Source: Candidatus Sericytochromatia bacterium
GTDB lineage: Bacteria > Cyanobacteriota > Sericytochromatia > S15B-MN24 > VGJW01
Reading direction: 5' to 3'
Length of the DNA: 64,000 nucleotides
Assembly: GCA_035286125.1 (NCBI GenBank)
Contig: JAYKIS010000053.1
Location: 11,210-75,209, forward strand
The notes under the pieces are model-generated. The model ran no database searches. It worked only from the letters and a program-made list of their open reading frames with translations, and was not told the origin of the DNA. The first letter of the stretch is position 1, and each line of letters opens with the position of its first letter. Of this stretch, positions 7,267-25,052 are shown in pieces. The translations under genes were made by a program, and so were the position numbers.

Positions 7267-9372
7267 TCAGGCTGCCCCGACCGCGATCGACACGGCCCCG
7301 ATGGCCTGGACCTTGAACTTGGCGTTGATTTCCGAGTAGGACAGGACCGAGAGGTTCGGGAAGTTGCGATCGACCAGATTCTTGACGTGGGGCCGCACGA
7401 TCGGGCTGACCAGCACGGCCGGATTCTGACCCCGCGCCAGGGCCTCGTTCACGACGCCAGCGAGGCGTGCCAGCATCAGCTGGGCAATCTGCGGGTTGAG
7501 CGCCAGGGTCGGCCCCTGAGGCCCTGGCTGGATGGCCTGCTGGATCGCGCCCTCCACGGCCGGGTCCAGCGTGATCACGTCGATCCGGCCCTCCTCGTCC
7601 GCCACCGAGGCACAGATATTCCGCGACAGCTGCTGCCGGACCAACTCGGTCAGCGTGAAGACATCCTTGGTCATCTTGCCGAAGTCCGCCAACTTCTCGG
7701 CGATGGTCGCCAGGTCGCGGATGCTGACCCGCTCCCGCAGCAAGGCCTGCAGCACACGCTGGACCTCGCCAAGGGCGAGGACCTCGGGCACCAGCTCCTT
7801 GACGGTGATGGGCGCACGCTCCTGCAGCCGGTTGAGCATCATCTTGACCTCTTCACGGCTGAGAATCTCGTGGGCATGCGTGCGGACCACTTCCTCGAGG
7901 TGGGCCGTCAGCACGTTGGTCGGATCCTGAATCAGGTAGCCCAGCTGCGCGGCACGCTGGGCCTCGGCTCCGGCCACCCATACGGCAGGGCGGTTGCCGG
8001 CAGGGTCGCTGGTCGGGAAGCCGACCAGCTCCTGGGACAGGTCCGTCGTGTTGAGCTGGATGGCGAGCATGTAGCCGACCAGCAGTTCGCCGGTGGCGAC
8101 GGTGTTGCCCTTGACCAGGATCTGGTAGGCATTGGGCCGCAGGTTGAGGTTGTCCTTGAACTGGATACCGGGCATGACGAAGCCGAGGTCCAGGGCAATG
8201 GCCACGCGCATGGGCACGACTCGATCCATCAATTCGCCACCGAGGCCGGGATCGACGAGCGGCACCAGGTCCAGACCCAGCTCGAGCGTGAGCGGCGGCA
8301 CCCCCAGCATCTTCATGACGTTCTCGGGGTTCTTCAGATCCTCGTCGGATTCCGGTTGGTAGTCGTCGAACTCGTCCCCCATCGGCGCGGCATCCCCGGC
8401 CTGGGACGGGGGTGCCGCTCCCAGAAGGCCACCCCTGTAGGCCACGAAGGCCGCGAACAGGATCGCAAGGCCCAGCAGCAACATCAGGATCGTCGGGAAG
8501 CCCGGGATGAAACCCATCATGACGATGACGAAGCCCACAATGCCCAGGACCTTGGGGCTCGTGAAGAGCTGGTTCTTCAAGTCGGTCGCCAGGTTGAAGT
8601 CCGACGCGGCTCGGGTCGTGACGAAACCGGCCGAGATCGAGATCAGCAGGCCCGGGATCAGGCCGACCAGGCCGTCGCCGATGGTCAGCAAGGAATAGAT
8701 CTTGAGCGCCTGTTCGACCTCCATGTCCTTCTGCAGGATGCCGATCAGGATGCCGCCGATGATATTGACGAAGATCAGGATGATGGCCGCGATGGCATCG
8801 CCCCGGACGAACTTGTTGGCACCGTCCATCGCACCGAAGAAGTTGGCCTCCCGCTCGAGGTCGGTCCTGCGCTTCTTGGCGCCCTCGGCATCGATGAGGC
8901 CCGCCGCAAGGTCCGCATCGATGGACATCTGCTTGCCGGGCATGGCGTCCAGGGTGAAGCGGGCCGCGACCTCGGCCACGCGCTTGGCGCCTTCTGTGAT
9001 GACGATGAAGTTCACGATGATCAGGATCGCGAACAGGATGAAACCCACGATGAAGTTGCCGCCCACGACGAAGTTGGCGAAGGTCTCGATGACCTTTCCG
9101 GCTTCCGCATGGCTCAGGATCGAGCGGGACGTGGCCACCGACAGGGCCAGCCGGTACAGGGCCATGATCAGCAGCAACGACGGGAAGCTGGCGAACTCGA
9201 GCGGCCTGACCAGGTACAACGACACGAAAACGATGACGAGTGCCGCGACCAGGTTGATGATCAGCAGCAGGTCCAGCATCCACAGGGGAAGCGGGATGAC
9301 CAGGATCGCCAGGACCAGGATGACGATCCCGGCCAGGATCAGATCGGGAATCAGCCCCTTGCGCTGCGGCAT
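7267..9372 (-). CDS. flhA: flagellar export apparatus protein FlhA
   Basis: 701 aa. N-terminal polytopic membrane domain, FHIPEP-type region (FVRGDAIAAIILIFVNIIGG) and a large cytoplasmic C-terminal domain. Confidence 0.95.
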   Translation of the reverse strand: MPQRKGLIPDLILAGIVILVLAILVIPLPLWMLDLLLIINLVAALVIVFVSLYLVRPLEFASFPSLLLIMALYRLALSVATSRSILSHAEAGKVIETFANFVVGGNFIVGFILFAILIIVNFIVITEGAKRVAEVAARFTLDAMPGKQMSIDADLAAGLIDAEGAKKRRTDLEREANFFGAMDGANKFVRGDAIAAIILIFVNIIGGILIGILQKDMEVEQALKIYSLLTIGDGLVGLIPGLLISISAGFVTTRAASDFNLATDLKNQLFTSPKVLGIVGFVIVMMGFIPGFPTILMLLLGLAILFAAFVAYRGGLLGAAPPSQAGDAAPMGDEFDDYQPESDEDLKNPENVMKMLGVPPLTLELGLDLVPLVDPGLGGELMDRVVPMRVAIALDLGFVMPGIQFKDNLNLRPNAYQILVKGNTVATGELLVGYMLAIQLNTTDLSQELVGFPTSDPAGNRPAVWVAGAEAQRAAQLGYLIQDPTNVLTAHLEEVVRTHAHEILSREEVKMMLNRLQERAPITVKELVPEVLALGEVQRVLQALLRERVSIRDLATIAEKLADFGKMTKDVFTLTELVRQQLSRNICASVADEEGRIDVITLDPAVEGAIQQAIQPGPQGPTLALNPQIAQLMLARLAGVVNEALARGQNPAVLVSPIVRPHVKNLVDRNFPNLSVLSYSEINAKFKVQAIGAVSIAVGAA

Positions 9373-9386
9373 GCGTCAGCCGGCCG

Positions 9387-11324
9387 CTAGACCGGAACCC
9401 CCAGCTTGCGCCTGAGATTCTGGGACACCATCCGCTGCGTCATCGAGGGCAGGGGCCCCGAGGAGCCCATGCGGTTGAAGACGTCACCCTGGATATCCGG
9501 CGGCAAGCTGGCGATGACCGTCTCGGCGAACGAGGGATCGAGCTGGGCCAGCACGCCCGCCACTGTTGCCGGACGCTCCGTCGCGAGTGCCTCGGCAAGC
9601 TGCTCGGGACCGACCTGGTAAGCGAAGTCGAAAGGACCTTCCCCGGCCCCGGCCTGCTGCTGGGCCCCGTAGCCCTGCTGCTGGGGCGCGCCATAGGCAG
9701 CCTGAGCCCCGTAAGCCGATTGGTCCTGGTCGAACCCGCCCATCTGGGGCATCCCGCCGGGCAAGGCACCTAGCTGTTCGGGCGTCGGGAAGCCGCCCAA
9801 GGCACCTGGCCCCTCGAAGCCGGCGGGCAAGGCCTCGGCATCGAGCCCCGAGGACAGGACATCGAAGGGATTCTCGGTCGACCGCTTGCGACGGGAGACG
9901 AGCGCGACGATGGCGGCGAAGACGAAGGCCGCGACACCGCCCCAGATGACGAGGTTCCAGCCCACGGCACCCTTCTTCTTGGCGGCGGCCTTCGCTTCGG
10001 CCTCCTTCTTGCTGAGCTGGTCCTTGAGCTGGTCCATCAGGGTCGTGTCGAACTTGACGCGCTCGACCGTCACCTGGTCCCGACGGGCCGGATCGGCACC
10101 CGCTGCAGCCGCAATCACGTTGCGCAGCTTGTCCACGGCCTCGGGCTTCACGGTTTCGGGCAAGAGCACGGCGATGCTCATGCGCTTGATGTTGCCCGAG
10201 GCCGTCTGGACGATCTGGTCCTCCTGGTTGAAGGCGGGCTGTTCCCGGATGTTCTCGCGGGAGGTCTCCTGACCCTGCGCCGCCCCGGTCACGCCGGGCT
10301 GGCCGGCGACGTTGCCGGGCAACAAAGGATAGCTGGGAAGATTGGCCGAGGTCCCGGGCGCCGCACCCTGGGCGCCATTCTTGAGCGTCTCGCGCTGGAC
10401 GGATCGGGCGCTGCTCATCGGTTCGCCGTTGGCCGTGACTGGCGCGAGCAGGCGATTGCGGACCTGCCGCTTGTTGAAATCGAGTTCGAGGCGAACCCGA
10501 ACCACCGACTTGCCATTGCCCACGAGTTTGTCCAGCAGCAACTGCAGGCTGGTCTGGATCTCGCTCTCCATCGACCGGGTGATCTTCATCTGCTGGTCGA
10601 TGGCCCGCGAGACCAGTCGCTCGTTGTTGTCTCCGATGTTCGTCTCGAGGCCGCTCGAAATCAGGTTGCCCTGATCGTCCACGATCGTGACGTTGTCGGT
10701 CAGCAGACCGGGCACCGCCGAAGCCACCATGTGCTGAATGCCCTCGACCTGCTGGGCGGTCAACTGGCGATTCGATTCCATCTTGACCATGACGCTCGCC
10801 GTGATGGCCTTCTTCTCCTGCTGGAAAAGGGTGTCCTCAGGCATATTGACCAGGACCGTGGCGTCCTCGACGCCCTGCACCTTGCGCACCAGGCGGGTCA
10901 ACTCGCCGTTCAGCGCGCGAAGGAAGGCAATCTTCTTGTCGAAATCCGTCGAGATGAAGTCCTTCTTGTTGAAGATCTCGAGGCCCTGATTGTTGGGGTT
11001 CTTGGGGACCTGCGCCTCGCCGAGTGCGACCCGGGCATCGACAACCTTGTCCTTCTGGACCAGGAGGGTGCCATCTTCCGTGAACTTGAACTCCCTGATT
11101 TTCTGGGCCTTGAGTGCAGCCGCAGCCTCATCCATCTCCTTGGGCTGAAGGTACTTGAAAACCACCTCGTAGCCTGATTCCTGCTCCCGCGCCTGAGGGT
11201 CTTCCTTCTTGCCCCCGGACATCACCGCAAAGGCAATGGCCACCACCAGCAGCAGCACCAGGCCGGCGCCGCCGCCCAGCAGGGCGATGCGCTGCTGGGG
11301 TGTCAGGTTTTGCAGGAAGCCCAT
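9387..11324 (-). CDS. fliF: flagellar MS-ring protein FliF with an extended C-terminus (Q/G/A-rich linker plus FliG-middle-like helical module)
   Basis: 645 aa. It has an N-terminal TM helix, a YscJ/FliF periplasmic region and a second TM helix (WNLVIWGGVAAFVFAAIVALV). About 165 further residues follow it; see findings. Confidence 0.9.
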   Translation of the reverse strand: MGFLQNLTPQQRIALLGGGAGLVLLLVVAIAFAVMSGGKKEDPQAREQESGYEVVFKYLQPKEMDEAAAALKAQKIREFKFTEDGTLLVQKDKVVDARVALGEAQVPKNPNNQGLEIFNKKDFISTDFDKKIAFLRALNGELTRLVRKVQGVEDATVLVNMPEDTLFQQEKKAITASVMVKMESNRQLTAQQVEGIQHMVASAVPGLLTDNVTIVDDQGNLISSGLETNIGDNNERLVSRAIDQQMKITRSMESEIQTSLQLLLDKLVGNGKSVVRVRLELDFNKRQVRNRLLAPVTANGEPMSSARSVQRETLKNGAQGAAPGTSANLPSYPLLPGNVAGQPGVTGAAQGQETSRENIREQPAFNQEDQIVQTASGNIKRMSIAVLLPETVKPEAVDKLRNVIAAAAGADPARRDQVTVERVKFDTTLMDQLKDQLSKKEAEAKAAAKKKGAVGWNLVIWGGVAAFVFAAIVALVSRRKRSTENPFDVLSSGLDAEALPAGFEGPGALGGFPTPEQLGALPGGMPQMGGFDQDQSAYGAQAAYGAPQQQGYGAQQQAGAGEGPFDFAYQVGPEQLAEALATERPATVAGVLAQLDPSFAETVIASLPPDIQGDVFNRMGSSGPLPSMTQRMVSQNLRRKLGVPV

Positions 11325-11331
11325 GCCGCGT

Positions 11332-11709
11332 TCAGATCTGGAGGTTCATCAGGGTCTGGAAGGACTGGGCCATCTTGTTGGTGACGCTGCTGGTGAGATG
11401 GACCAACGTCTCCGCCTTGGCGTTCTCAATCATGACGGCATGGGGGTCCACCGCCTTGCCGAGGGCAAAGTCCATCGTGATCTGCTCCGAACGGGCCTGC
11501 TGCGCATTGACCGAATCGATGGCATCGTTCAGCACGGCCATGAAGTGCGCACCTGGACCATCATCCTCGCTTGCCGCAAAGGAATCGGTGACGGACGGCA
11601 TCTTGCTGTCGGCCGACAGCGCGTCCGGCATCGCCGGAAAGTCCCCGAACGCGGGAAAGCCCCCCATGGCCTGACCGATACCCGGGGCACGGAACCCATC
11701 GATACGCAT
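11332..11709 (-). CDS. fliE: flagellar hook-basal body complex protein FliE
   Basis: 125 aa. The C-terminal half (FMAVLNDAIDSVNAQQARSEQITMDFALGKAVDPHAVMIENAKAETLVHLTSSVTNKMAQSFQTLMNLQI) follows the FliE pattern. It sits between flgC and fliF. Confidence 0.8.
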   Translation of the reverse strand: MRIDGFRAPGIGQAMGGFPAFGDFPAMPDALSADSKMPSVTDSFAASEDDGPGAHFMAVLNDAIDSVNAQQARSEQITMDFALGKAVDPHAVMIENAKAETLVHLTSSVTNKMAQSFQTLMNLQI

Positions 11710-11712
11710 CCG

Positions 11713-12111
11713 CTACCTCCCGATGTCCATGGACTTGTTGGCCATCGACTTGATGGCCTGCATCACGGTGACATTGGCGTCGTAGCTGCGCTGCACGCCG
11801 ATCATGTCGACCATCTCGGTCACGACGTTGACGTTGGGCATGCTGACGAAGCCGTCCTTGTCGGCATCGGGATGCCCAGGCTTGTAGACCCGTTGGAGGG
11901 GACTCTGGTCCTGCTCGATGGCCGATACGCGAACGCCCTGGATCTCGGCATCGAGGACCTCGGAAAACAGCGGGACCTTGCGTCGGTAGGGTCCCCCCTC
12001 CTCGGTCCGGGTGGTCTGCGCGTTGGCCAGGTTGCCCGCGATGACCTCGAGCCACATGCGGTTGGCCGCAAGGGCGCTTTCCCCCGTATTGAAGACGTTC
12101 ATCAGGCTCAT
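11713..12111 (-). CDS. flgC: flagellar basal-body rod protein FlgC
   Basis: Lies in ORF 11713..12201. The likely start is ATG 12111 (MSLMNVFNTGESALAANRMWLEVIAGNLANAQT), preceded by GGAGGTG. It has the rod-protein N-terminal motif and the C-terminal NVNVVTEMVDMI. Confidence 0.9.
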   Translation of the reverse strand: MSLMNVFNTGESALAANRMWLEVIAGNLANAQTTRTEEGGPYRRKVPLFSEVLDAEIQGVRVSAIEQDQSPLQRVYKPGHPDADKDGFVSMPNVNVVTEMVDMIGVQRSYDANVTVMQAIKSMANKSMDIGR

Positions 12112-12203
12112 CGGACGCCACCTCCAGCGAAAACCGGGCCAAGACCGTTCGCGTCCCTTGTACCCCCGGATGATGCAACCGAAAAGTTCGCCAACAAACA
12201 ATT

Positions 12204-12243: not shown

Positions 12244-12645
12244 TTACTTGGCGTCGATGACGAACTTGAGGTCCCGGTAGTCCCCGGCAAGGCTGGTCGC
12301 CAGCACATTGAAGCGCAAGGCGGCCTGAGTGGCGGCGGACACTTCCTTCTCGAGGACCACGCCGTTGCCATCCAGACGTTGCGGACGGCGCTCATCGACC
12401 TCGGTACGCGGTTGCCACTGCTCGAGCAGATAGGACGGATCCTCTGGGGCCTCGGTCCGTTCCGGGTCGATGGGTACCTCCATCGAGTCAAGGACCTCGG
12501 CGAGGGAATCCTCGAATTTCACATCCCGGCGCGCATAGCCTGGCGTATGAACATTGGCCAGGTTGAGCGCCGTCGCCTCCATGCGCCGTGACAAGCCATC
12601 CATCGCCCGCTCGATGCCGCGGACTTCCTTGCCGAACAGGTCCAT
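12244..12645 (-). CDS. flgB: flagellar basal-body rod protein FlgB
   Basis: Lies in ORF 12244..12666. The likely start is ATG 12645 (MDLFGKEV...), preceded by AGGAGG. ATALNLANVHTPGYARRDV is the rod-protein signature. Confidence 0.85.
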   Translation of the reverse strand: MDLFGKEVRGIERAMDGLSRRMEATALNLANVHTPGYARRDVKFEDSLAEVLDSMEVPIDPERTEAPEDPSYLLEQWQPRTEVDERRPQRLDGNGVVLEKEVSAATQAALRFNVLATSLAGDYRDLKFVIDAK

Positions 12646-12659
12646 CTTGTCCTCCTGTC

Positions 12660-13382
12660 CTACCAACTGATGAAGTCGTCAATCGACTTCTTCTTGCCCA
12701 GTTTCTGACGCACCTGACTGAGTGCACGCCGATGGATTCGGCTGACCCAGGACTCGGAAAGGCCCAGCATCTCGCCAATCTCGGCGAAGCTCATGTTCTT
12801 GAAGTAGTAGTTCTCGAGCGTGATGCGCTCGCGATCTTCGAGCAACTGGATCGTGAGCTTCAGGATGCGATGCAGGTCCTGCTCCTCGAGCTCCTTCTGC
12901 TTGTTGTCCCAGCGGCCCAACTGGTCGAGCCGCGAGTACCCGTCGTCTCCGTCGCCACCGGCGGGGTCGTCGAGCGAGAGCAGGTAGCTGTAGGCCAGCT
13001 CCGTGACACGATTGACCATGAGGGCCGCCTCGCCCTCGTCATCGCCCTCGGCAGGGGCGCCCTCCGGAGCCTCCGCGGGCTTTTCGCCCTTGATCTTCGG
13101 GGGCTTGGGAAGCTTGGGCAGGTTGTCGAGCATGGCGCCACGGATGTAGTAAGTGGCAAAGGTCTCGAACTTGACGCCGCGTTCGGGGTCGAAGCGATCG
13201 TGGGCCATCATCAGACCCATCCAGCCGTCGGCGATCAGTTCCTCGAGTTCGTAATGCTGGGGCAGCTTGCCGAGTTGCTTGCGGGCGATGCTGCGAACCA
13301 GACCCTCGTACTTCTTGATCTGCGCGGCATCGAGCGCCGGTGCCCCCTTGGAGCCCGGCATCGTGGCACGCTTGTCGCTCAT
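12660..13382 (-). CDS. fliA: RNA polymerase sigma factor, FliA/WhiG (sigma-28) type
   Basis: 240 aa. Region 2 (LIADGWMGLMMAHDRFDPERGVKFETFATYYIRGAM) and region 4 HTH (FAEIGEMLGLSESWVSRIHRRALSQVRQKL). An acidic/Pro-rich insert lies between them. The gene is embedded in the flagellar operon. Confidence 0.85.
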   Translation of the reverse strand: MSDKRATMPGSKGAPALDAAQIKKYEGLVRSIARKQLGKLPQHYELEELIADGWMGLMMAHDRFDPERGVKFETFATYYIRGAMLDNLPKLPKPPKIKGEKPAEAPEGAPAEGDDEGEAALMVNRVTELAYSYLLSLDDPAGGDGDDGYSRLDQLGRWDNKQKELEEQDLHRILKLTIQLLEDRERITLENYYFKNMSFAEIGEMLGLSESWVSRIHRRALSQVRQKLGKKKSIDDFISW

Positions 13383-13822
13383 GAGGGTCCGGCTTCTCCC
13401 TTGCCCGTTTCCGTCTTGCCGGCTTCTCTAGGCGTCAGGCGATCGACGATCAGGTCGACGAGGGGGTTGCCCTGATCGACGAAGTTCCTGGCCATCGCCT
13501 GGTCGAAGAAGTCCATGAACATCTCGGTGTCCCCGCCCCCTAGCAGGCTGTCCTCCTCCTTGGGGCGCATCTCCGCAAACATGTACCCGAAAAGAATGCT
13601 TGCGAACGCCTTGGCCGCCTCCTCGGGGTTGGTCGGTCCGACCATCGTGCCCGGGGTAGCATCCGAAGGGGTGACGAGCGGCAGCGCGCCGGACACCTGG
13701 GCCTGCTGGGGCAAACCCGGAGGAAGCGACCCCTGGAGCGGATCGGGGAGCCCGACGGCGGCCGACGACGTGGCCTTACGGTAACCGGACGGTGGCAGGC
13801 CGGGAGGAGGAGGGACCTGCAT
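13379..13822 (-). CDS. flagellar rod-binding protein (FlgJ N-terminal-domain-like, no muramidase domain)
   Basis: 147 aa. EEAAKAFASILFGYMFAEMRPK...FMDFFDQAMARNF matches the Rod_binding pattern. It has 1-nt and 4-nt overlaps with flgI and fliA respectively. Confidence 0.6.
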   Translation of the reverse strand: MQVPPPPGLPPSGYRKATSSAAVGLPDPLQGSLPPGLPQQAQVSGALPLVTPSDATPGTMVGPTNPEEAAKAFASILFGYMFAEMRPKEEDSLLGGGDTEMFMDFFDQAMARNFVDQGNPLVDLIVDRLTPREAGKTETGKGEAGPS

Positions 13823-14949
13823 CAGATGATCTCCAACTGGGCGTTGAGCGCACCAGCCGCCTTGATGTTCTGAAGGATGGTGATCAGGTCGCGCGGGGTC
13901 GTACCGAGGGCATTGAGGGCCCGCACCAGAGTCCCGAGCGTCGTCCCCTTGTCGAAGATGACGGCCTTGGCTTTCTGTTCTTCTGCCGAGACCTGGGACT
14001 CCTGGGTCACGGTCGTCTGGCCTCCGGCCAAAGGGTTCGGCTGCGAAACGTTGAACTTGGTCTCGACCTTGATGATGAGGCCTCCGTGGCTGATCGCCAC
14101 GGGATCGATCTTGACGTTGGAGCCGAGGATGACCGTGCCCGTGCGCTCCTCGACCACGACCCGCGCCACAGCGTCGGGTGCGACCTCGAGACCCTCGAGG
14201 CGCGCCACGAGGTCGACAAGGTTGTCCCGATACTGGTTGGTCACATAGACCCGGATGGTGCCGGCATCGAGCGCCTGGGCCGAGCCCAGGTACGAGCGGC
14301 CGATCGCCGCGGCGGCACGTGATGCCGTGATGAAGTCGGGGTTGTTGAGATTGATGTACAGGAAGCCGTTGGCATCGAGCACGGTGACGGGAACCTCGCG
14401 CTCGACGAAGCCCCCGTTGGGGATACGCGCGACCAGCGCGGGATTCTTCTTGACCTGCGAACCGTTGACCTCGATGCCGAAGCCACCGGTACTCAGCGGA
14501 CCTTGCCCCACGGCATAGACCTTGTCATCGGCGGCCTTCAGCGCCGTCGGGATCAGGACGCCGTTGTTCAGGCTGCGGGCATCACCGATGGACGAGACCG
14601 TGACGTCGATGGTCTGGCCGGGCTTGTAGAAGGGCGGTAGACGGGCGTCGACGGAAACGACGGCGACATTGCGGGTCCGCAGTCGCTCCGTCGGGAACAT
14701 GCCCGAGGCCTGGATGAAGTTGCGCAGGGCCCGCTCCGTGAATCCCGTGGTCTGCGAGTCTCCCGTGCCGTCGAGACCGACGACGAGGCCCACACCATGA
14801 AGGATGTTGGACCGCGCTCCCGAGACCGTCGCGATGTCCTTGAGGCGGGCAGGCTTGCCCTGCAGGACCTGCGCCCGGGCCTCGAGGACCGGCGCCAGCA
14901 ACAGCGCGAACAGGGCGAGGACCGCGGCAACGGGGTGGGCTTGTCTCAA
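13822..14949 (-). CDS. flgI: flagellar P-ring protein FlgI
   Basis: 375 aa. Signal peptide, then RLKDIATVSGARSNILHGVGLVVGLDGTGD and the C-terminal LVRALNALGTTPRDLITILQNIKAAGAL. Confidence 0.9.
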   Translation of the reverse strand: MRQAHPVAAVLALFALLLAPVLEARAQVLQGKPARLKDIATVSGARSNILHGVGLVVGLDGTGDSQTTGFTERALRNFIQASGMFPTERLRTRNVAVVSVDARLPPFYKPGQTIDVTVSSIGDARSLNNGVLIPTALKAADDKVYAVGQGPLSTGGFGIEVNGSQVKKNPALVARIPNGGFVEREVPVTVLDANGFLYINLNNPDFITASRAAAAIGRSYLGSAQALDAGTIRVYVTNQYRDNLVDLVARLEGLEVAPDAVARVVVEERTGTVILGSNVKIDPVAISHGGLIIKVETKFNVSQPNPLAGGQTTVTQESQVSAEEQKAKAVIFDKGTTLGTLVRALNALGTTPRDLITILQNIKAAGALNAQLEII

Positions 14950-14961
14950 GGTGGCAGGTTC

Positions 14962-15588
14962 CTAGAAGAGCCAGTTCAGCAGGCGGGTGAACAGGCCAGG
15001 CGTGGTCTTGGCCGTATTGGGGCCCGACCCTTGGTATTCGAGTTGGAAGCCGGCGATGCGCTCGCTGGGGATGCGGTTGTCGATCCCGATGTCCCAGGGA
15101 CGGACGACGCCCGAGATGACGACTGTGGACTTCTCGTCGTTGACCACCAGCTCCTTGGAGCCCTTGATACGCATCGAGCCATCAGGAAGGATTTCGGTGA
15201 TCTGGGCCGCGACCAGCATCGAGATGGCACCACCCCGGCGAGTCACGCCGTCGCCATTGAAGTCGGACTTGCCGACCATCTCGACCTGATTGTTGAAAGC
15301 ACCCTGGTTGTTGCCGCCCAGCCCGAAAATCGTACCGAAGTCCCAGGAAGACGTGACCTTGGAGTCCTTGATGGTGCGCGTCGTCGCCGCCTGTTCCGCC
15401 TGGATGTTCTCGGTCACGACAACCGTCACCAGGGAACCGGGGCCGATGGCCATCCGCCGATCGCCGACCTGGTCGCTGATCAGTCCCCCGTAGTTGCTGT
15501 CCGGGAAAAGCGAGTCGGCCCGGGCCGTCCGGGCGGGGACAAACGCCACGGTCACAAGAAGCGCCAACGCGAGAAGTCTGCGGTTCAT
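14962..15588 (-). CDS. flgH: flagellar L-ring lipoprotein FlgH
   Basis: Lies in ORF 14962..15984. The start is ATG 15588 (MNRRLLALALLVTVAF...). SLFPD, DRRMAIGPGSLVTVVVTENIQA and SGVVRPWDIGIDNRIPSERIA are FlgH hallmarks. Confidence 0.9.
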   Translation of the reverse strand: MNRRLLALALLVTVAFVPARTARADSLFPDSNYGGLISDQVGDRRMAIGPGSLVTVVVTENIQAEQAATTRTIKDSKVTSSWDFGTIFGLGGNNQGAFNNQVEMVGKSDFNGDGVTRRGGAISMLVAAQITEILPDGSMRIKGSKELVVNDEKSTVVISGVVRPWDIGIDNRIPSERIAGFQLEYQGSGPNTAKTTPGLFTRLLNWLF

Positions 15589-15593
15589 TCCAA

Positions 15594-16325
15594 TTACTCC
15601 CCGAGATCCATCTCGACCACCTCGGCATCCCGGACCCGCGCCAGGAAGTCCTTGCGGGACGAAGGGTTCACGATGCGGATGACCTGCCCGACACGGCCAT
15701 CCTGCAAGGCAGTGCCCTGCCCGAGGACCTCGAGTCCGCCACTGCGGACATGCACGCGGACCGTCGCTCCCTGGCGCACCACGGGCGGCAGGTCCAGCAC
15801 ATTCGTGATGAGCACGCTGCCGCTGGCCAGGCTGCGCACCAGCTTGGCCCCGATCAACGCCCCGATATCCAGCAGAACAGATCCCGTCACGCGGCTCTGG
15901 GCCAGGCGACGCATCTCGATGTCCGCCGGGGCCAACGAAGCCCCCCGCTGCATCGGATGGGCAAGCACCGGCAGGTTGCGCCACGCCTCGACCGCAAAAC
16001 GGGGAACCACCGATGCGACCTTGCGCCCGGTGCCATCGAGCACGTCGAAGGACACGGGTACGGAAGGCCCCAACTGGCGGATGGGGCCGGCGAGGCGCAG
16101 GGTCGCGTCGACCGTGCCCTTGGGCACCAGGCTCGCGATCTCGGGAAGCAGCGGCCGAACCTCGATTTCCCCGGCCGGATACTGGACCTGAAGTGCCGCA
16201 CGGACCATGTCGACGGCAGTCCGACCGATCGAGGTCCGCGCCTCGACCGGCGACGAGACGGCGAGCAGCAGGGCGAGGGCGGCCGCAGCCCCCCCCCGCA
16301 TACCTCCTGCCCGCATCTTGCTCAC
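15594..16325 (-). CDS. flgA: flagellar P-ring assembly chaperone FlgA (SAF domain)
   Basis: 243 aa. Signal peptide; the C-terminal GATVRVHVRSGGLEVLGQGTALQDGRVGQVIRIVNPSSRKDFLARV is the typical FlgA end. Confidence 0.75.
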   Translation of the reverse strand: MSKMRAGGMRGGAAAALALLLAVSSPVEARTSIGRTAVDMVRAALQVQYPAGEIEVRPLLPEIASLVPKGTVDATLRLAGPIRQLGPSVPVSFDVLDGTGRKVASVVPRFAVEAWRNLPVLAHPMQRGASLAPADIEMRRLAQSRVTGSVLLDIGALIGAKLVRSLASGSVLITNVLDLPPVVRQGATVRVHVRSGGLEVLGQGTALQDGRVGQVIRIVNPSSRKDFLARVRDAEVVEMDLGE

Positions 16326-16336
16326 GTTCCCGACCG

Positions 16337-17116
16337 CTACCGGATGAGGCCGTTGGTCGACTCCATCATCTTGTCGGAAACATTGATGGCTTTTGAAGAG
16401 GTGTCATAAGCCTTCTGAGTCGCGATCATCATGACCATCTCGGTCACGAGCTCGACGTTCGAGGCCTCGAGAGCACCCTGAACGACCCGCCCAAGGCCTT
16501 CGGAACCTCCATTGGCCGGCCCGATCGTCCTTCCGGCCGCGTCCGAAATCGTGTACAGGTTATTGCCAATCGACATCAAGCCCGCGGGGTTCGGGAAGTT
16601 GACGAGCTGCAGGTTCCCCAGGATCTGCACAGGCCCACTGCCTTGCAGGCGACCAAAGATAGCGCCGTCCTCCCGGATGCGGATTTCCGTGGCACCACCC
16701 ACCTGCAATCCATCCCCCACGACGAGGCCCGACGAGGTCACGAGCAGGCCCTGGTTATTGATCTTGAACGAGCCATCACGGGTATAGGCCTTGTTGCCGA
16801 TCACCCGTGAATCGGTAGTCGTGACCTCGAAAAAGCCGGGTCCATCGATGGCGACATCCAGAGGGTTGTTGGTGACCTGCATGTTGCCCTGGGCGTGGTA
16901 CTTGGAGATGGCAGACGGCCGGACGCCCAGCCCTACCTGCATGCCGGCCGTCTCGACACCCGGCGCCTGAACGGCCTGGTAGAGCAAATCCTGAAAGTCC
17001 ACCTGGCTCTTCTTGTACGAAGTGGTGTTGACGTTCGCCAGATTGTTGGCGATGGCATCGATGCGCATCTGCTGCGCCTGCATGCCGGTCGCGGCGGTCC
17101 AGATCGAATGCATCAT
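16337..17116 (-). CDS. flgG: flagellar distal rod protein FlgG
   Basis: 259 aa. MMHSIWTAATGMQAQQMRIDAIANNLANVNTTSYK and the C-terminal LEASNVELVTEMVMMIATQKAYD. Confidence 0.9.
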   Translation of the reverse strand: MMHSIWTAATGMQAQQMRIDAIANNLANVNTTSYKKSQVDFQDLLYQAVQAPGVETAGMQVGLGVRPSAISKYHAQGNMQVTNNPLDVAIDGPGFFEVTTTDSRVIGNKAYTRDGSFKINNQGLLVTSSGLVVGDGLQVGGATEIRIREDGAIFGRLQGSGPVQILGNLQLVNFPNPAGLMSIGNNLYTISDAAGRTIGPANGGSEGLGRVVQGALEASNVELVTEMVMMIATQKAYDTSSKAINVSDKMMESTNGLIR

Positions 17117-17143
17117 GAAGACATTCCTCCGTGGAACAGGGGG

Positions 17144-17875
17144 TTACTGGGTGCGGCCAAGGTCGTTGCTGGCCTTTTGCAGGAGTTGGTCATGCACCGT
17201 AACCAGCTTCTGCCCGAGGCCAAAGTGCCGATTGGCCTCGATAAGTCCCATCATCTCGGTCACGATGTTGACGTTCGAGGACTCGAGGAAGCCCTGCTGC
17301 AAGCGACCGCCATCGGCCGGCAGCAGCGCGCCCTGTGCGACGGGAAAGCCGGCCATCTGGGCTACGGAGGGCGTGAACAGCCCGATCCGGCCGAGGACCC
17401 CGTCCGTCCCGCGCACGGTGCCATCAGCCTCGATCTTGAGGCCGTTGAGATCCTGCGGCATTTCGATGGGCGCAAGGCCCGTGTCGAGGATACGCTCCCC
17501 GTTGCCGGTTACAAGGTAGCGATCGGCATCGAGCCTGAGCTGGCCATTCCGGGTGAATACCCGCGTACCGTCGGCGCGCTGGGCAAGCATCTGATGATCG
17601 TCGGTCTCGACGGCCACATCGAGCAGGCCGTCGGTACGCCGAAGGCTTCCTGCCTTGCCATCCCGGGCCACCTCGTCGATCTGGGCCCCCAACTGGACGC
17701 GCCCCGGATCGGCATCGCCCGTCAGGTCGACCAGGACGTCCCCGAAGGACCGGACGACCGCTTCCTTGCGCTTGTAGCCCGTCGTCGCCGAGTTGGCGAG
17801 GTTGTCGGCCATCACGTCCACCATGTGCGTGTTGAGCTGCATGGCGGAGGCTGCCGTGTAGATGCCGCGAATCAT
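17144..17875 (-). CDS. flgF: flagellar proximal rod protein FlgF
   Basis: 243 aa. MIRGIYTAASAMQLNTHMVDVMADNLANSATTGYK and LESSNVNIVTEMMGLIEANRHF. It lies immediately upstream of flgG. Confidence 0.8.
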   Translation of the reverse strand: MIRGIYTAASAMQLNTHMVDVMADNLANSATTGYKRKEAVVRSFGDVLVDLTGDADPGRVQLGAQIDEVARDGKAGSLRRTDGLLDVAVETDDHQMLAQRADGTRVFTRNGQLRLDADRYLVTGNGERILDTGLAPIEMPQDLNGLKIEADGTVRGTDGVLGRIGLFTPSVAQMAGFPVAQGALLPADGGRLQQGFLESSNVNIVTEMMGLIEANRHFGLGQKLVTVHDQLLQKASNDLGRTQ

Positions 17876-18102
17876 CGACGCCCCTCCTTCGTTCCCGAGA
17901 CTTCGACCTGCTGATCCAGCGCAAAGACGAACCCCAGCGTCTCCGCCACGGCGGCGGCAAGCTCGGGAGGCACGGCCCGGGGGTCCAGCTGGCCCAGCAC
18001 CCGCGTCAGCGCCGCTGCCTCGGCAGGCGGCGCTCCGTAGGCCTCGGCGACCTGCGCCAGGCTGTTCCAGAGGGCGTCATCGTCGGGACGGTTGCCTTTC
18101 AC
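17872..18102 (-). CDS. small protein resembling the C-terminal part of FlhB-C / EscU-YscU-HrcU-type switch domain proteins
   Basis: 76 aa. LAQVAEAYGAPPAEAAALTRVLGQLDPRAVPPELAAAVAETLGFVFALDQQ parallels the ...IPI.EDP.LA..L....L...IP.ELY..VAE.LAFVY.LD pattern of small FlhB-like proteins. It has 4-nt overlaps with both neighbours. Confidence 0.4.
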   Translation of the reverse strand: MKGNRPDDDALWNSLAQVAEAYGAPPAEAAALTRVLGQLDPRAVPPELAAAVAETLGFVFALDQQVEVSGTKEGRR

Positions 18103-19259
18103 AGGACCCCCACGGCTCGTGACAACCGACGCAGGTCCCTGCGTCGGGGAAGCAGGATCGAGATGCTGCGCCCGTTGCCCACGGCATCGACCCGCATACC
18201 GGCCAGCACATAGCCCGTGCGCGGTCCGATGCGCCGGCCCAACTCGCCGGTACGCGCGTCGAAGAAGGCCTTGATCTGGGCATCCTGGACCTCGAAGCCG
18301 ATGCCGAGGTGCCCCCTGCTCGCCGTCAGATCGATCGTGATGCGCCCGAGATTGCGCGTATCGATGGCGATGGTGACCTGGGCATACTGGGAGCGTCGTT
18401 CAGCTCCTCCTTCCCTGTCGGCGTGGATCAGGATCTCCCCGGGCATGGGCTGCTGGTCGCGCCACTGGAAGAAGGGCACGTAGAGCGTGCTCTGTGGCGT
18501 CCGCTGGAGCATCTCATGGGCCCGGAAGTGCTCGCCCAGTGCCTGGATATCCTGTGCCAGCGGTTCGGGCAGCCGCGCCGCAGCCAACGTCGTCACCTGT
18601 TGGCGGATACGGGTGGCGACCTGCTGGAACTGAGGCATCTCGGCAGCCAGCATCTCCGGACCGTTGCCCAGCTTCCACCACGCCTGCAGCGACTGCTTGA
18701 GGGCCTCGGCCTGCGGGCCTGCCGGCCCGGCCGTGCGCAGCGTCATGGCGGTCCGCGCCAGCAAGTGCGCCGTCGGCCCCCCTGCCAGCAGGCGCGCCAT
18801 GGCCTTGAAGTTGTCGGGCTCGGTGGGCAGGCCTGCGGAAAACAGGGCCGTCAGCGCCTCGAGATCGACGAGCGAGCTGCCTCCCAACGCCTGCCAGAGG
18901 GCGCGAATCTGCTCGATGTTGGCGGGTTGCAGGGGCACACCGTAGCGCAACATCTGCTGCGCGATGCGCAGGTGAACGGGTGTGGGAGCGACGCCCTGCT
19001 GGGCAAGCCGCGCAAGAATCGACGCCTCGTTGTGGTAGCCGAACCAGGTGGGTCCCGATGGCTTCTGACGCGCAGCCGCCTCGAGGGACGGATCCGCCGC
19101 TCCGGTACGGCCGAGCGCCGTCCACGACCGCGACCTGGCATTGGCATCGATGGCGGGGTCAGGCTGCCCAGCCCCGCGACCAACCCCAGCCGAACCCGTC
19201 CGGGTCAGCGCGGGGTCCAATCCGCCGCCTCCCAGCCGGTTCAAGGGATTGAAGGCCAA
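18099..19259 (-). CDS. flagellar hook-length control protein FliK-like
   Basis: 386 aa with a TTG start after AGGAGAG. The C-terminal region (YAQVTIAIDTRNLGRITIDLTASRGHLGIGFEVQDAQIKAFFDARTGELGRRI) resembles the Flg_hook domain. The N-terminal half is poorly structured. Confidence 0.5.
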   Translation of the reverse strand: MAFNPLNRLGGGGLDPALTRTGSAGVGRGAGQPDPAIDANARSRSWTALGRTGAADPSLEAAARQKPSGPTWFGYHNEASILARLAQQGVAPTPVHLRIAQQMLRYGVPLQPANIEQIRALWQALGGSSLVDLEALTALFSAGLPTEPDNFKAMARLLAGGPTAHLLARTAMTLRTAGPAGPQAEALKQSLQAWWKLGNGPEMLAAEMPQFQQVATRIRQQVTTLAAARLPEPLAQDIQALGEHFRAHEMLQRTPQSTLYVPFFQWRDQQPMPGEILIHADREGGAERRSQYAQVTIAIDTRNLGRITIDLTASRGHLGIGFEVQDAQIKAFFDARTGELGRRIGPRTGYVLAGMRVDAVGNGRSISILLPRRRDLRRLSRAVGVL

Positions 19260-19480: not shown

Positions 19481-19966
19481 GTGCGCAAGTCTCGTGGTTT
19501 CACCCTGATTGAGTTGCTGGTGGTCGTGGTCATCATCGGCATCCTGGCCTCCGTGGCCGTGCCCAACTTCATGGGTGCGCAGGACAAGGCCAAGAATGCC
19601 GGCGTCCAGGCCAACGCCCACAGCGTCCAGATGGCCCTGGAGCAATACGGCGTCGACAAGGCCGGCGTCTACCCCGACAACGCCAACTTCTACGCCGAAG
19701 TCATCCAGAAGCCCGAATATATGGCGGGTGGTGCCTATCCCAAGACGCCCTGGGGCAAGGGTCCTCAGACTGCCAACGTGGAACCCACGAAGACGCTCGT
19801 GAACGAGGCCATCGGCGCCGGCATCAACACCGGGACCTTCGCCGAGAATCACTACGGCGCAGTCTGCTATGCCGTTGGCGGAACCGCCAGCGACACCTAC
19901 ACCATCACGGGCATCGGCAAGAAGTCGAGCAATGCCGTCGTGGTGTCGGTGCTCAAGAACAACTGA
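19481..19966 (+). CDS. pilA: type IV pilin (prepilin-type N-terminal cleavage/methylation domain)
   Basis: 161 aa with a GTG start after GGAG. MRKSRG/FTLIELLVVVVIIGILASVAVPNF is a class III signal peptide. Confidence 0.85.
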   Translation: MRKSRGFTLIELLVVVVIIGILASVAVPNFMGAQDKAKNAGVQANAHSVQMALEQYGVDKAGVYPDNANFYAEVIQKPEYMAGGAYPKTPWGKGPQTANVEPTKTLVNEAIGAGINTGTFAENHYGAVCYAVGGTASDTYTITGIGKKSSNAVVVSVLKNN

Positions 19967-19984
19967 GTCGGAACGTGTGCGATG

Positions 19985-20008
19985 GCCTGTCGCCCCGGGG
20001 CGACAGGC
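19985..20008 (+). terminator. 10-bp hairpin downstream of pilA
   Basis: gcctgtcgcc-ccgg-ggcgacaggc, 19 nt after the pilA stop. There is no strong T tract. Confidence 0.45.
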
Positions 20009-20039
20009 TATCGCGGTGCCTGAAGGTGAAGCAGCGATC

Positions 20040-20798
20040 GTGAGCGAACTCGTCCTCGAGGCTTCCGGCCTCTCCAAGACCTATGCGGCCCAGATCGGGC
20101 AACCGGCACGACATGCCCTCGTCGACCTCGACTTGATCATCCGGCCCGGAGAGACCTTTGGCCTGCTTGGCCCCAATGGGGCGGGCAAGACCACCTCGCA
20201 AAAACTGTTCCTGGGCCTTGCACGCCCGACCCGCGGCACGATCCGGGTCTTCGGGCAAAGTCCCGAGAACCCCGATGTCCGGAACCGCATCGGCTACCTC
20301 CCCGAGAATCCCTACTTCTATCAGCACCTGACGGGCGAGGAGTTCCTGCGGTTCTGCGGCGGCCTGTTCAACCTGCCGCGGCACGTGGTCGACGCGCGCA
20401 CCGACCAACTTCTGGTGCAGGTCCGGATGCAGGAAGCGCGCAAGGCACAGCTCAAGAAGTATTCCAAGGGCATGCTGCAACGCGTCGGCATCGCCCAGGC
20501 CTTGATCAACGACCCTGAGCTGGTGCTCCTCGACGAGCCGATGAGCGGCCTCGACCCGGTCGGGCGTCACGAGTTCCGAGAGCTGATCCTGGACCTCAAG
20601 CGGCAGGGCAAGACCATCTTCTTCAATTCGCACATCCTCTCGGACGTGGCGGAAATCTGCGATCGCGTCGGCATCCTGGTCGAGGGACGGCTCGCCGCCG
20701 AGGCTGCCGTCGACGACCTGAAGCGCCAGGGCCGGGACCTGGAGACCTTGTTCATGGAAACGGTCCGTGCTCCGAAGGCCGTAGCCGCCACGGCGTGA
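20040..20798 (+). CDS. ABC transporter ATP-binding protein (ABC-2 type)
   Basis: Lies in ORF 19869..20798; the probable start is GTG 20040 (VSELVLEASGLSKTY). Walker A GPNGAGKTT, signature YSKGMLQR and Walker B LVLLDEP. Confidence 0.85.
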   Translation: MSELVLEASGLSKTYAAQIGQPARHALVDLDLIIRPGETFGLLGPNGAGKTTSQKLFLGLARPTRGTIRVFGQSPENPDVRNRIGYLPENPYFYQHLTGEEFLRFCGGLFNLPRHVVDARTDQLLVQVRMQEARKAQLKKYSKGMLQRVGIAQALINDPELVLLDEPMSGLDPVGRHEFRELILDLKRQGKTIFFNSHILSDVAEICDRVGILVEGRLAAEAAVDDLKRQGRDLETLFMETVRAPKAVAATA

Positions 20799-21568
20799 CG
20801 CTCATGTCCGCTGGCCACATCGTGGCGCTGGCCCACCAGACGTGGCGCGAACTGCTTCGTGAACGTCTGGTGTCAGGGGCCTTGCTCGCCTCCGTCGTGA
20901 TCCTGCTGATCGCCATTCCACTCGGCGGACTCTCGCTGGGCCAGGATGGTCGCATCCTGGCGGACCTCGGCTTTGCCAGCCTCGAAGTGACCTCGGTCCT
21001 GCTCGTCATCGTGGCCGGGGCCCAGATGCTGCCCCGCGAGTGGGAACGCCGGACCTCGTTCCTGGTGCTGTCCAAGCCGGTCTCGCGCACCAGCTTCCTG
21101 CTGGGCAAGGCCTTCGGCCTGCTCGCCATGGGTACCTTGCTGGTCTGCATCCAGGCCGTGATCCTGCTGGCCCTCCTGGCGCTGCGTGGGCTCGAAATAG
21201 GGCCCTTGCTGGGCCAGCTTCCCCTGGTGCTGCTCCAGACCATGGTAGCGGCATCGTTGGCCGTCGGCTTCTCGGCCTTTGCCTCGACCCCCGTCACCTT
21301 GCTGGCCACGCTGGCGCTCTATGTCACGGGCCACAACCTGGACAGCCTGCAGGGGCTGGCGGCGCAACTGCCATGGCCCTCGAAAACCCTGCTGTCGGCC
21401 ATCGGTCACCTCCTGCCGGACTTCTCGCTGCTGGACCTCAAGAACCGGATCATCCATGGACAGCGGTTGACGCCCGAACTGGCCCTTGCGGCCGTCATAC
21501 ACGGCGTCTCCTGGTGCGTACTGGCCTTGAGCACCGGCATCCTTGCCTTCCATCGACGTGAAGCCTGA
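20795..21568 (+). CDS. ABC-2 type transporter permease
   Basis: 257 aa with about 6 predicted hydrophobic helices. 4-nt overlap with the upstream ATPase gene. Confidence 0.65.
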   Translation: MTLMSAGHIVALAHQTWRELLRERLVSGALLASVVILLIAIPLGGLSLGQDGRILADLGFASLEVTSVLLVIVAGAQMLPREWERRTSFLVLSKPVSRTSFLLGKAFGLLAMGTLLVCIQAVILLALLALRGLEIGPLLGQLPLVLLQTMVAASLAVGFSAFASTPVTLLATLALYVTGHNLDSLQGLAAQLPWPSKTLLSAIGHLLPDFSLLDLKNRIIHGQRLTPELALAAVIHGVSWCVLALSTGILAFHRREA

Positions 21569-22274: not shown

Positions 22275-22301
22275 CATGGCCATGATGGGTGGTACAAACG
22301 G

Positions 22302-23252: not shown

Positions 23253-23253
23253 C

Positions 23254-25049: not shown

Positions 25050-25052
25050 GCC

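Follow-up and report, generated by a model that had tools for sequence, protein, structure and literature searches.

A full-length FliF that ends in a FliG middle domain, encoded in a flagellar operon of Sericytochromatia

In the canonical flagellar motor, as in Salmonella, Thermotoga and Vibrio, the switch complex is attached 1:1 to the MS ring by a non-covalent joint, in which two C-terminal helices of FliF co-fold with the ARM_N domain of FliG. To our knowledge, this FliF_C/FliG_N joint is treated as universal in flagellar motors. A fliF gene from Sericytochromatia, non-photosynthetic relatives of cyanobacteria, raises the question of how an MS ring could be joined to its switch complex by other means. 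An earlier note on the 64-kb stretch of DNA that carries this gene (the window, 64,000 nt) proposed that its product ends in a module resembling the FliG middle domain instead of the peptide that docks the FliG N-domain, with flhA as the next gene. The features of the locus are collected in Table 1.

Table 1. Features of the fliF locus, numbered by position in the window.
Feature	Position (nt)	Strand	Basis
flhA (701 aa, export-gate protein, directly downstream of fliF)	7267-9372	-	FHIPEP 803 bits
fliF-flhA spacer, 14 nt	9373-9386	-	sequence
fliF::FliG_M fusion gene	9387-11324	-	ORF list, Pfam, TIGR00206
FliG middle (ARM_M) domain, 82 aa (aa 564-645)	9390-9635	-	Pfam, PDB profile, AlphaFold, Foldseek
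G/A/Q/P-rich low-complexity flexible linker (aa 512-563)	9636-9791	-	pLDDT 46-51 (AlphaFold)
Juxtamembrane motif ENPF[DE]xL..L....LP..F[DE]Q.AL.G (aa 484-511)	9792-9875	-	conserved in alignment of 16 fusion FliFs
TM2 (about aa 456-479)	9888-9959	-	hydrophobic run WNLVIWGGVAAFVFAAIVALVS; AlphaFold helix, model residues 2-25, pLDDT 87-94
Periplasmic ring-building region RBM1-RBM3 (aa 49-425)	10050-11180	-	PF01514, PF08345
Putative TM1 (about aa 13-36)	11217-11288	-	hydrophobic run IALLGGGAGLVLLLVVAIAFAVMS, read from the translation
fliE (immediately upstream of fliF)	11332-11709	-	Pfam FliE
flgC (upstream block flgB-flgC-fliE)	11713-12201	-	Pfam (FliE, Flg_bbr_C, Flg_bb_rod set)
flgB (upstream block flgB-flgC-fliE)	12244-12666	-	Pfam (FliE, Flg_bbr_C, Flg_bb_rod set)
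Rest of operon	12660-19259	-	Pfam
Putative flgH gap	14949-15594	-	FlgH annotated at the equivalent position in relatives

The fliF product (645 aa; stop codon TAG at 9387-9389) is 100% identical to a protein named FliF in an NCBI metagenome-assembled genome of Candidatus Sericytochromatia. Pfam assigns it three domains, YscJ_FliF (PF01514, aa 49-223, 168 bits), YscJ_FliF_C (PF08345, aa 264-425, 91 bits) and FliG_M (aa 573-641), and the FliF model TIGR00206 (555 positions, cutoff 129.75 bits) matches from position 14 to position 439 with 201.5 bits. The MS-ring body is normal, with two transmembrane helices around RBM1-3, as judged from the profile models and, for TM2, from an AlphaFold helix. 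The part singled out by the earlier note, 9390-9863, corresponds to aa 488-645. In the AlphaFold model a short helix forms at NPFDVLSS within the juxtamembrane motif (pLDDT about 57-67), and TM2 and the tail are confidently predicted around a disordered linker. The Q/G/A-rich linker described after TM2 is real: the stretch between TM2 and the tail spans 85 aa here (G 18, A 13, Q 11, P 8) and 48-95 aa among 43 homologues, and the linker is the least conserved part of FliF, with 13-33% identity at depth.

The last 82 aa of FliF are a genuine FliG middle (ARM_M) domain. Pfam FliG_M (PF14841) matches the tail with 50-52 bits (E 3.6e-13; curated cutoff 25) over model positions 1-69 of 76, and a PDB profile search aligns it to Thermotoga maritima FliG (1lkv) at E 4e-13 with about 40% identity over 78 residues. 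The full-length FliG model TIGR00207 aligns through its positions 111-187 (29 bits against a cutoff of 226.7), and a FliG HMM built for this analysis from 40 sequences places the tail at positions 99-184 of 335. When FliG sub-domain HMMs were applied to the tails, the median for M was 61.6 bits, as against 18.6 for N, 7.4 for ARM_C and 7.5 for C, and an identity as FliG_N was rejected on this basis. AlphaFold predicts six helices with a pLDDT of 91.6 for the tail alone and 91-97 in context, and the top Foldseek matches are the FliG_M domains of the FliG-FliM complexes 4fq0, 4qrm and 3soh (TM 0.73-0.84, rmsd 1.6-2.3 Å; best TM 0.84 at 1.6 Å).

The 81-aa module quoted in the earlier note is indeed present, at 9390-9632, and it is predicted to adopt an ARM-like fold, as the note led one to expect. 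The note had read it as a pattern shared by FliG_M and the MgtE_N repeat, of which only the first half stands: FliG_M exceeds its cutoff twofold, whereas MgtE_N (PF03448) reaches 15.5-17.1 bits against a cutoff of 25.9, and MgtE structures fit poorly, appearing only at Foldseek rank 21 or lower with an rmsd of 9-11 Å. FliG_M is thus the only one of the FliG_N, FliG_M, FliG_C and MgtE_N models above cutoff. FliG_N (PF14842) and FliG_C (PF01706) have no match in FliF, FliG_N even at E up to 10, and the polypeptide stops at about position 184 of the 335 in the FliG HMM, without the charged torque helix. The absence of the torque-generating C-domain from this module, as noted earlier, is accordingly confirmed.

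The module stands where the canonical end of FliF should be. The TIGR00206 match stops early, leaving the C-terminal 116 model positions unmatched, and the '..DP..vA.vv+.Wl' end is absent from all fusion FliFs in the alignment of relatives, while it is kept in the non-fusion FliFs (P0049-P0060). The survey of FliF C-termini therefore agrees with the proposal that the FliG_N-docking end has been replaced. Compared with the canonical joint, this FliF lacks both elements and carries a fused ARM_M instead.

The fusion is a stable property of its lineage. Among the FliF relatives listed down to 33% identity (P0001-P0048), all complete ones combine PF01514, PF08345 and PF14841, and the only three that lack this set are truncated or partial sequences. 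At least 12 different assemblies contribute fusion FliFs, and the carriers belong to Sericytochromatia, Tanganyikabacteria among them. Purifying selection on the tail is strong (dN/dS 0.05-0.07 against relatives at 94% and 88%), and where overall identity falls to 34-42% it is the best-conserved segment of FliF, at 49%. In some clades, extra copies of the module are found on other proteins, namely FlhA_C fusions and a protein of 211 aa anchored by a TM helix, which hints at a more general docking role.

The surrounding genes form a real flagellar operon, with flgF, flgG, flgA, a putative flgH, flgI, flgB, flgC, fliE and flhA. Beyond flgB, they encode a sigma-70-family (FliA-like) factor, a rod-binding FlgJ-like protein, FlgI, FlgA, FlgG, FlgF and a FliK-like protein. 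As the earlier note stated, flhA begins exactly 14 nt past the fliF stop, and the spacer holds no promoter-like or terminator-like site. The order flgB-flgC-fliE-fliF::FliG_M-flhA is conserved in the relatives' loci that were read, the fliF-flhA adjacency recurs in those loci that reach past fliF, and flagellin genes adjoin flhA in some clades. Among the non-fusion FliFs whose gene neighborhood could be read, the nearest one lies in the order flgB-flgC-fliE-fliF-fliG-fliH-fliI-fliJ, and the nearest non-fusion relatives have a normal FliG of 330 aa. With profile HMMs, structure prediction and the survey of relatives in agreement, the central proposal of the earlier note, a FliG_M fused in place of the docking peptide with flhA next, is upheld.

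The note was also right that the operon lacks fliG, fliH, fliI and fliJ, and Pfam and the local FliG HMM find none of them in the whole window. Similarly, FliG_C, FliM, FliN and MotA/MotB were found neither in the window nor in the flanks of fliF, about 10 kb on each side, in more than 10 related genomes. Neither tblastn with the tail nor phmmer with Escherichia coli FliG gave a match in the window and related loci, and the FliG HMM, run against every ORF of at least 40 aa in the window and 25 related loci, returned only FliF tails and their paralogues. Contigs around fusion FliFs from seven clades show the same operon and no fliG. A word-indexed tail-profile search returned only tail fragments, a scan of a genome collection with the tail alignment only fliF loci, and a search with flagellin as bait only the known flhA-flagellin loci; a dispersed repeat was also searched for, and none was found. 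Among the 3177 matches of a tail-profile search of representative proteins, tails score 98-158 bits and ordinary FliGs at most 72 bits, none of the latter being assignable to the Sericytochromatia lineage. The best non-fusion match, P0116, was rejected as the lineage's FliG, being a FliG-like protein of Bacillota/Actinomycetota type. A FliG-profile search gave 7403 matches, the best 120 of which include none from Sericytochromatia.

An engineered precedent for such a joint exists in Salmonella, where a FliF-FliG fusion lacking 56 aa of the FliF C-terminus and 94 aa of the FliG N-terminus still assembles flagella and supports motility, with a motor that is CW-biased and slower and has a smaller C ring (PMC6445934); the earlier note had described it correctly. 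In both proteins FliF_C and FliG_N are gone and the covalent joint falls at about FliG position 95-105. However, FliG_M and FliG_C, torque helix included, are both retained in the Salmonella fusion and no long linker precedes them, whereas the natural protein has nothing beyond FliG_M and sets a disordered tether of 48-95 aa before it. Other natural fusions, of a short FliF with FliG_MC, were found in P0123 and P0238 (639 and 648 aa; locus L017). These too are covalent FliF-FliG proteins without FliG_N, and their FliG_M is among the better tail-profile matches (56-68 bits), but they retain FliG_C with the torque helix (MEQIGPVRLSDVEAAQ), YscJ_FliF is their only detectable FliF domain, and fliH-fliI-fliJ-fliN-fliOPQR-flhB-flhA follow. 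No publication on fusions of this type was found, and the literature search returned nothing on the flagellar genes of either Sericytochromatia or Tanganyikabacteria; the only published natural FliF-FliG fusions that it turned up are those of Chlamydia.

A natural FliF-FliG_M fusion has been published for the Chlamydiaceae, in a protein of about 330 aa that lacks RBM1 and the RBM3/SpoIIIAG-like domain, from a non-flagellate host with only a few flagellar genes (Bergeron 2016, PeerJ, PMC4768692). Both proteins consist of a FliF-like part, TM2 and a FliG_M-like end, without FliG_N, FliG_C or a FliG_N-binding end. They differ in that the FliF described here is full length (RBM1-3, 645 aa) and is encoded in what looks like a complete basal-body operon. 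The NCBIfam model NF004606 (PRK05934), which we take to represent the chlamydial, CT719-type FliF-like family, its own name being only 'type III secretion system protein', gives 37.4 bits on the present FliF against a cutoff of 297. This is far below cutoff, so the protein does not belong to the Chlamydiaceae family, and the two fusions probably arose independently. The FliF-FliG_M fusion as such is therefore already known, and a full-length FliF in a flagellar operon is a new variant of it. Since the chlamydial fusion occurs in a non-flagellate, the architecture alone does not imply a torque-generating rotor.

The reading that we favor, with a probability of roughly 0.6, is that the tail is a functional ARM_M that serves as a covalent adaptor between MS ring and switch complex, replacing the FliF_C/FliG_N joint. 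In place of the non-covalent joint, ARM_M would be tethered to the cytoplasmic side of the MS ring by about 85 disordered residues. Since it is part of the FliF polypeptide, the ring has one FliG_M for each of its roughly 34 FliF subunits. The tail may bind the FliM middle domain through a conserved E-x-P...R surface, and its armadillo face could stack against ARM_C in a protein that bears the torque-generating FliG C-domain and whose gene lies elsewhere; such a partner would be a FliG truncated at its N-terminus or FliG_C by itself. The switch complex would thereby be fixed covalently to the MS ring.

The tail residues equivalent to the FliM contacts of FliG bear on this. The EHPQ..R motif corresponds to E583-R584-P585-A586 and R618 in the tail, and in 44 tails the equivalents of E125, P127 and R160 are conserved in 42, 41 and all 44, respectively. 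The equivalent of H126 is R or K in every one of them, and the Q of EHPQ is replaced by A, G or P in 40. With two of the five EHPQR residues changed, FliM binding by the tail could be altered or lost. In addition, helix_MC and the Gly-Gly hinge lie beyond the end of the tail, which therefore cannot itself pass switching to a C-domain. A more specific form of the adaptor reading, put forward only tentatively, is a split FliG, in which the middle domain has become part of FliF, the C-domain is a separate small polypeptide held through ARM_M-ARM_C stacking, and FliG_N and FliF_C have been discarded.

It is somewhat unlikely that the tail replaces only the C-terminal peptide of FliF and that a complete N-M-C FliG is encoded elsewhere, with the tail mimicking a neighboring FliG_M and capturing ARM_C/ARM_N while the free FliG binds FliM and switches. 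An intact ARM_M fold, a FliM-contact motif conserved only in part (R/K for H, A/G for Q), the need for some source of a torque domain and the normal FliG of the nearest non-fusion relatives would all suit such an arrangement. However, the near invariance of E, P and R over deep divergence is hard to explain without FliM binding, the N-domain of that FliG would find no FliF_C helices for co-folding, and no FliG appears in the window or near fliF in the more than 10 genomes covered.

An export-only role resembling that in Chlamydia, in which the tail would bring a FliM/FliN (SctQ-like) sorting platform to the MS ring for type III export while taking no part in torque transmission, appears improbable. 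It would fit the FliF-FliG_M architecture of the non-flagellate Chlamydiaceae (PMC4768692), the weak match of NF004606 to both halves of the fusion, the export-gate gene immediately after fliF and the FlhA_C-FliG_M-like fusion proteins of a related clade. Against it, genes for a full rod, for the P and L rings and for a FliK-like protein are present in the operon, flagellin genes lie beside flhA in relatives, and FliF is full length where the chlamydial protein is truncated; moreover, export and rotor roles can coexist. An artefact, that is, a mis-assembled or mis-called fusion, or an unused FliG fragment decaying after a deletion, might be suspected from the metagenomic source and from the loss of FliG_C right after the module. 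This is effectively refuted by the conservation data: the fusion recurs in about 45 distinct proteins from independent NCBI, JGI, ENA and Logan assemblies, which rejects an assembly artefact, the low dN/dS and the conservation of the tail at depth speak against decay, and the predicted fold is confident.

Under the favored covalent-adaptor reading, the gene may derive from an ancestral flgB-flgC-fliE-fliF-fliG order, through an in-frame fliF-fliG fusion with loss of FliF_C and FliG_N; fliG would also have been broken behind FliG_M, which would have placed flhA beside the fusion.

The FliF_C/FliG_N joint is central to debates on MS-ring/C-ring stoichiometry and on the templating of the C ring, and a class-level lineage that has full basal-body genes and in which this joint is replaced by FliG_M on a flexible leash is a natural experiment. 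Annotation pipelines that require fliG beside fliF, or a full-length FliG match, may misjudge motility in these organisms. The chlamydial fusion has been read as possibly ancestral or injectisome-related, and the same FliF-FliG_M design beside genuine flagellar genes bears on that reading. As a natural experiment on the motor, FliG_N would be dispensable in nature, beyond a crippled laboratory mutant, and the lineage would enforce a 1:1 FliF:FliG_M stoichiometry. The fusion may also show whether FliG works as two separate polypeptides; a split FliG, if true, would be a rotor subunit plan unlike that of every motor studied so far.

The last 82 residues of the FliF encoded here (the tail) are a FliG middle domain (FliG_M or ARM_M) and more than a lookalike of one. 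Pfam FliG_M matches the tail at 50-52 bits (curated cutoff 25) over model positions 1-69 of 76, and the FliG model TIGR00207 aligns to it at model positions 111-187. MgtE_N was rejected, scoring 15-17 bits, under its Pfam cutoff, with MgtE far behind in Foldseek; the FliG_N and FliG_C models do not match this fusion FliF. A profile of 16 tails matches T. maritima FliG (1lkv; E 4e-13); the match begins at the PFSF motif, includes EHPQT and extends as far as the helix that follows ARM_M. Modelled alone with AlphaFold (pLDDT 91.6), the tail has its best Foldseek matches among FliG_M chains from FliG-FliM complexes of H. pylori and T. maritima (TM 0.84-0.73, rmsd 1.6-2.3 Å). Scored on 44 tails, sub-domain HMMs cut from a 40-sequence FliG alignment give median bit scores of 61.6 (M), 18.6 (N), 7.4 (ARM_C) and 7.5 (C-terminal bundle). 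The FliF chain stops at FliG position ~184 of 335, just short of helix_MC and the Gly-Gly hinge, and thus has no ARM_C and no torque helix. The FliG-middle-like module without a torque-generating domain that an earlier note had read from the sequence is therefore borne out by profile, predicted fold and endpoint. Within the tail, the FliM-contact motif EHPQ...R of FliG corresponds to E583-R584-P585-A586 and R618; across the 44 tails, E is kept in 42, P in 41 and R in all, while H is always R or K and Q is usually A or G.

The FliF model TIGR00206 matches at 201 bits (positions 14-439 of 555), and its last 116 positions are without a match. In an AlphaFold run on the segment from TM2 to the end (alignment of 16 homologues), pLDDT is ~90 for TM2, 46-51 for the linker and 91-97 for the last 82 residues, so that the linker is predicted to be disordered. 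The low-complexity linker and helical module described earlier are seen in both translation and model, and 43 homologues have between 48 and 95 residues separating TM2 from the tail. A juxtamembrane motif, partly helical in the model and kept in most fusion FliFs despite an otherwise variable linker, could be a short binding motif. All of the non-fusion FliFs P0049-P0060 end in the amphipathic '..DP..vA.vv+.Wl..' helix that binds FliG_N, whereas no fusion FliF compared with them has it. The module thus stands where the docking peptide would be, as proposed, and fusion tails do not align as ordinary FliG_N-binding ends.

The gene belongs to one long minus-strand flagellar operon with the order FliK-like, flgF, flgG, flgA, putative flgH, flgI, FlgJ-like, FliA-like, flgB, flgC, fliE, fliF, flhA. 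The coordinates confirm that flhA follows directly, exactly 14 nt separating the fliF TAG from the flhA ATG; promoter-like or terminator-like sites were sought in this spacer and none was found. Positions 9390-9863 encode FliF residues 488-645 and contain the sequences quoted in the earlier note. The FliA-like gene, whose end shares 7 nt with the start of flgB, lies inside the structural operon in all relatives. The pilus- or secretion-like genes in the window include prepilin (N_methyl), prepilin peptidase, PilM, PilN, secretin, two T2SSF and two T2SSE ATPases, one T2SSE being fused to a ParA-like domain.

Features of the fusion FliF, its operon and related loci
Feature	Location	Strand	Remarks
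fliF	9387-11324	-	645 aa; stop TAG 9387-9389
flhA	7267-9372	-	FHIPEP 803 bits; ATG at 9372-9370
FliA-like (sigma-70-family) sigma factor gene	12660-13382	-	mid structural operon, between FlgJ-like gene and flgB
Ordinary FliF part	aa 1-455		TM1, then YscJ_FliF (aa 49-223), YscJ_FliF_C (aa 264-425)
TM2	about aa 456-479		AlphaFold model
Juxtamembrane motif ENPF[DE]xL..L....LP..F[DE]Q.AL.G	aa 484-511; 9792-9875		alignment of fusion FliFs
Low-complexity G/A/Q/P-rich stretch	aa 512-563		
Six-helix domain	aa 564-645		AlphaFold models
Type IV pilus or type II secretion-like genes	19481-26331; 38410-39507	+	
Type IV pilus or type II secretion-like genes	59708-63958	-	
Extra fliF-flhA gene (related loci)	L012 11840-12475; L013 3774-4409; L231 6839-7486; L234 7173-7586		
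Flagellins with proline-rich insert (related loci)	L138 14366-16330; L012 14987-17007; L228 14332-15330		directly after flhA

The fusion has become fixed in a class-level lineage, where it lies in a genuine flagellar operon. An NCBI MAG protein of Candidatus Sericytochromatia matches this FliF at 100% identity, and contig VGJW01000005.1 of Candidatus Tanganyikabacteria, which belong to Sericytochromatia, matches the locus at 99% (VGJW01 MAG: 2.85 Mb, 41 scaffolds, 91% complete). Down to 33% identity (P0001-P0048), the listed FliF relatives combine PF01514+PF08345+PF14841 wherever they are complete; the only three that do not are partial or truncated sequences, and none of the more distant FliFs listed has the combination. 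The tail profile, searched exhaustively with HMMER against 1.84 billion representatives, separates fusion tails (98-158 bits) clearly from ordinary FliGs (at most 72 bits). The order flgB-flgC-fliE-fliF::FliG_M-flhA is identical in all loci read past fliF (seven sub-clades, at least 12 assemblies). The tail shows dN/dS of 0.05-0.07 in comparisons with relatives at 94% and 88% identity, and at deep divergence it retains 49% identity, the highest in the protein (periplasmic rings 34-42%, linker 13-33%).

Further FliG_M-like proteins came up in the tail-profile search. In one Sericytochromatia clade (LC083/JAKFEW01, JAYKHR01), an extra gene, not present in the window, lies between fliF::FliG_M and flhA. 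The JAKFEW01 product (211 aa; Pfam FliG_M 29.7 bits) has an N-terminal TM helix and two FliG_M/MgtE_N-like modules, module 1 like the FliF tail and module 2 retaining 'EHP'; in the JAYKHR01 ORF (138 aa), one module was detected. The stand-alone proteins P0105 (L016 7725-10061, outside any flagellar cluster) and P0112 begin with FlhA's cytoplasmic half (FHIPEP model 324-655) and continue in 2-3 FliG_M-like modules, the last closely like the tail of FliF in the P0032 clade. Giant proteins with 9-15 FliG_M/MgtE_N-like repeats (P0113, 7269 aa; P0114, P0115, P0144, P0201) rank among the best tail-profile matches. A proline-rich insert, DPVPPPPLxPxFPPGTTxAQAFPK, is conserved in the flagellins of related clades; unlike those clades, the window's clade has no flagellin gene after flhA.

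The Pfam architecture of the fusion FliF is already precomputed in public databases; publications on such a fusion in Sericytochromatia or any flagellated lineage were not found. NF004606 (NCBIfam), which we take to be the model of the chlamydial FliF-FliG_M family, gives 37 bits where its cutoff is 297, indicating an analogous architecture, yet a protein outside that family. The natural fusion published for Chlamydiaceae (Bergeron 2016, PMC4768692) is ~330 aa long, has neither RBM1 nor RBM3 and occurs in a non-flagellate host, whereas here a full-length FliF is encoded in a flagellar operon. The FliF-FliG_M fusion as such is thus already published; its new form is full-length FliF with FliG_M in a genuine flagellar operon.

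When all ORFs of at least 40 aa in the 64-kb window and in ~10 kb on each side of fliF in more than 10 related genomes were searched with a FliG HMM, only FliF tails and paralogues matched; the operon lacks fliG, as the earlier note had stated. Wider searches yielded either large numbers of FliGs from other phyla or the fliF locus alone. An orphan 265-aa FliG-like protein, P0116 (L014 971-1768), has a shortened N-domain and a deleted torque-helix segment; its contig has no flagellar neighbours and its kin are FliGs of Bacillota and Actinomycetota. The closest non-fusion FliF readable in genomic context (P0050, 32% identity) lies in the classical order flgB-flgC-fliE-fliF-fliG-fliH-fliI-fliJ...fliK-flgD-flgE-fliL-fliM with a normal 330-aa FliG, so the Sericytochromatia order appears derived. 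It may have arisen when fliF and fliG fused in frame with loss of FliF_C and FliG_N and a break occurred after FliG_M.

We consider it somewhat probable (about 0.6) that each FliF subunit carries the tail as a functional, covalently attached FliG_M, which replaces the noncovalent FliF_C/FliG_N joint. To judge from FliG_M in solved C rings and in FliG-FliM co-crystals, the tail would bind FliM_M by its conserved E/P/R surface and would offer its armadillo face to ARM_C of a putative torque-bearing partner encoded elsewhere. Such a joint is feasible because a Salmonella deletion fusion lacking 56 FliF and 94 FliG residues assembles flagella and swims, in line with the earlier note, albeit with a CW bias and a smaller C ring (PMC6445934). 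A natural counterpart of that fusion is seen in P0123 and P0238 (L017 10001-11920), which join a short FliF (YscJ_FliF only), a TM helix, FliG_M and FliG_C and keep the torque helix intact; the L017 gene precedes fliH-fliI-fliJ-fliN-fliO-fliP-fliQ-fliR-flhB-flhA-flhF-flhG. It is less likely that the tail does no more than take the place of FliF_C, with a complete FliG being captured through ARM stacking. A Chlamydia-like role as export platform only is improbable, with the full complement of rod, ring and flagellin genes speaking against it, and an artefact or remnant is ruled out by conservation. Overall, what the earlier note observed holds, and its reading of the module as a FliG-like middle domain carried by FliF is supported. 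Should FliG here prove to be a FliF-borne middle domain plus a free torque domain, the finding would be considerably more interesting.
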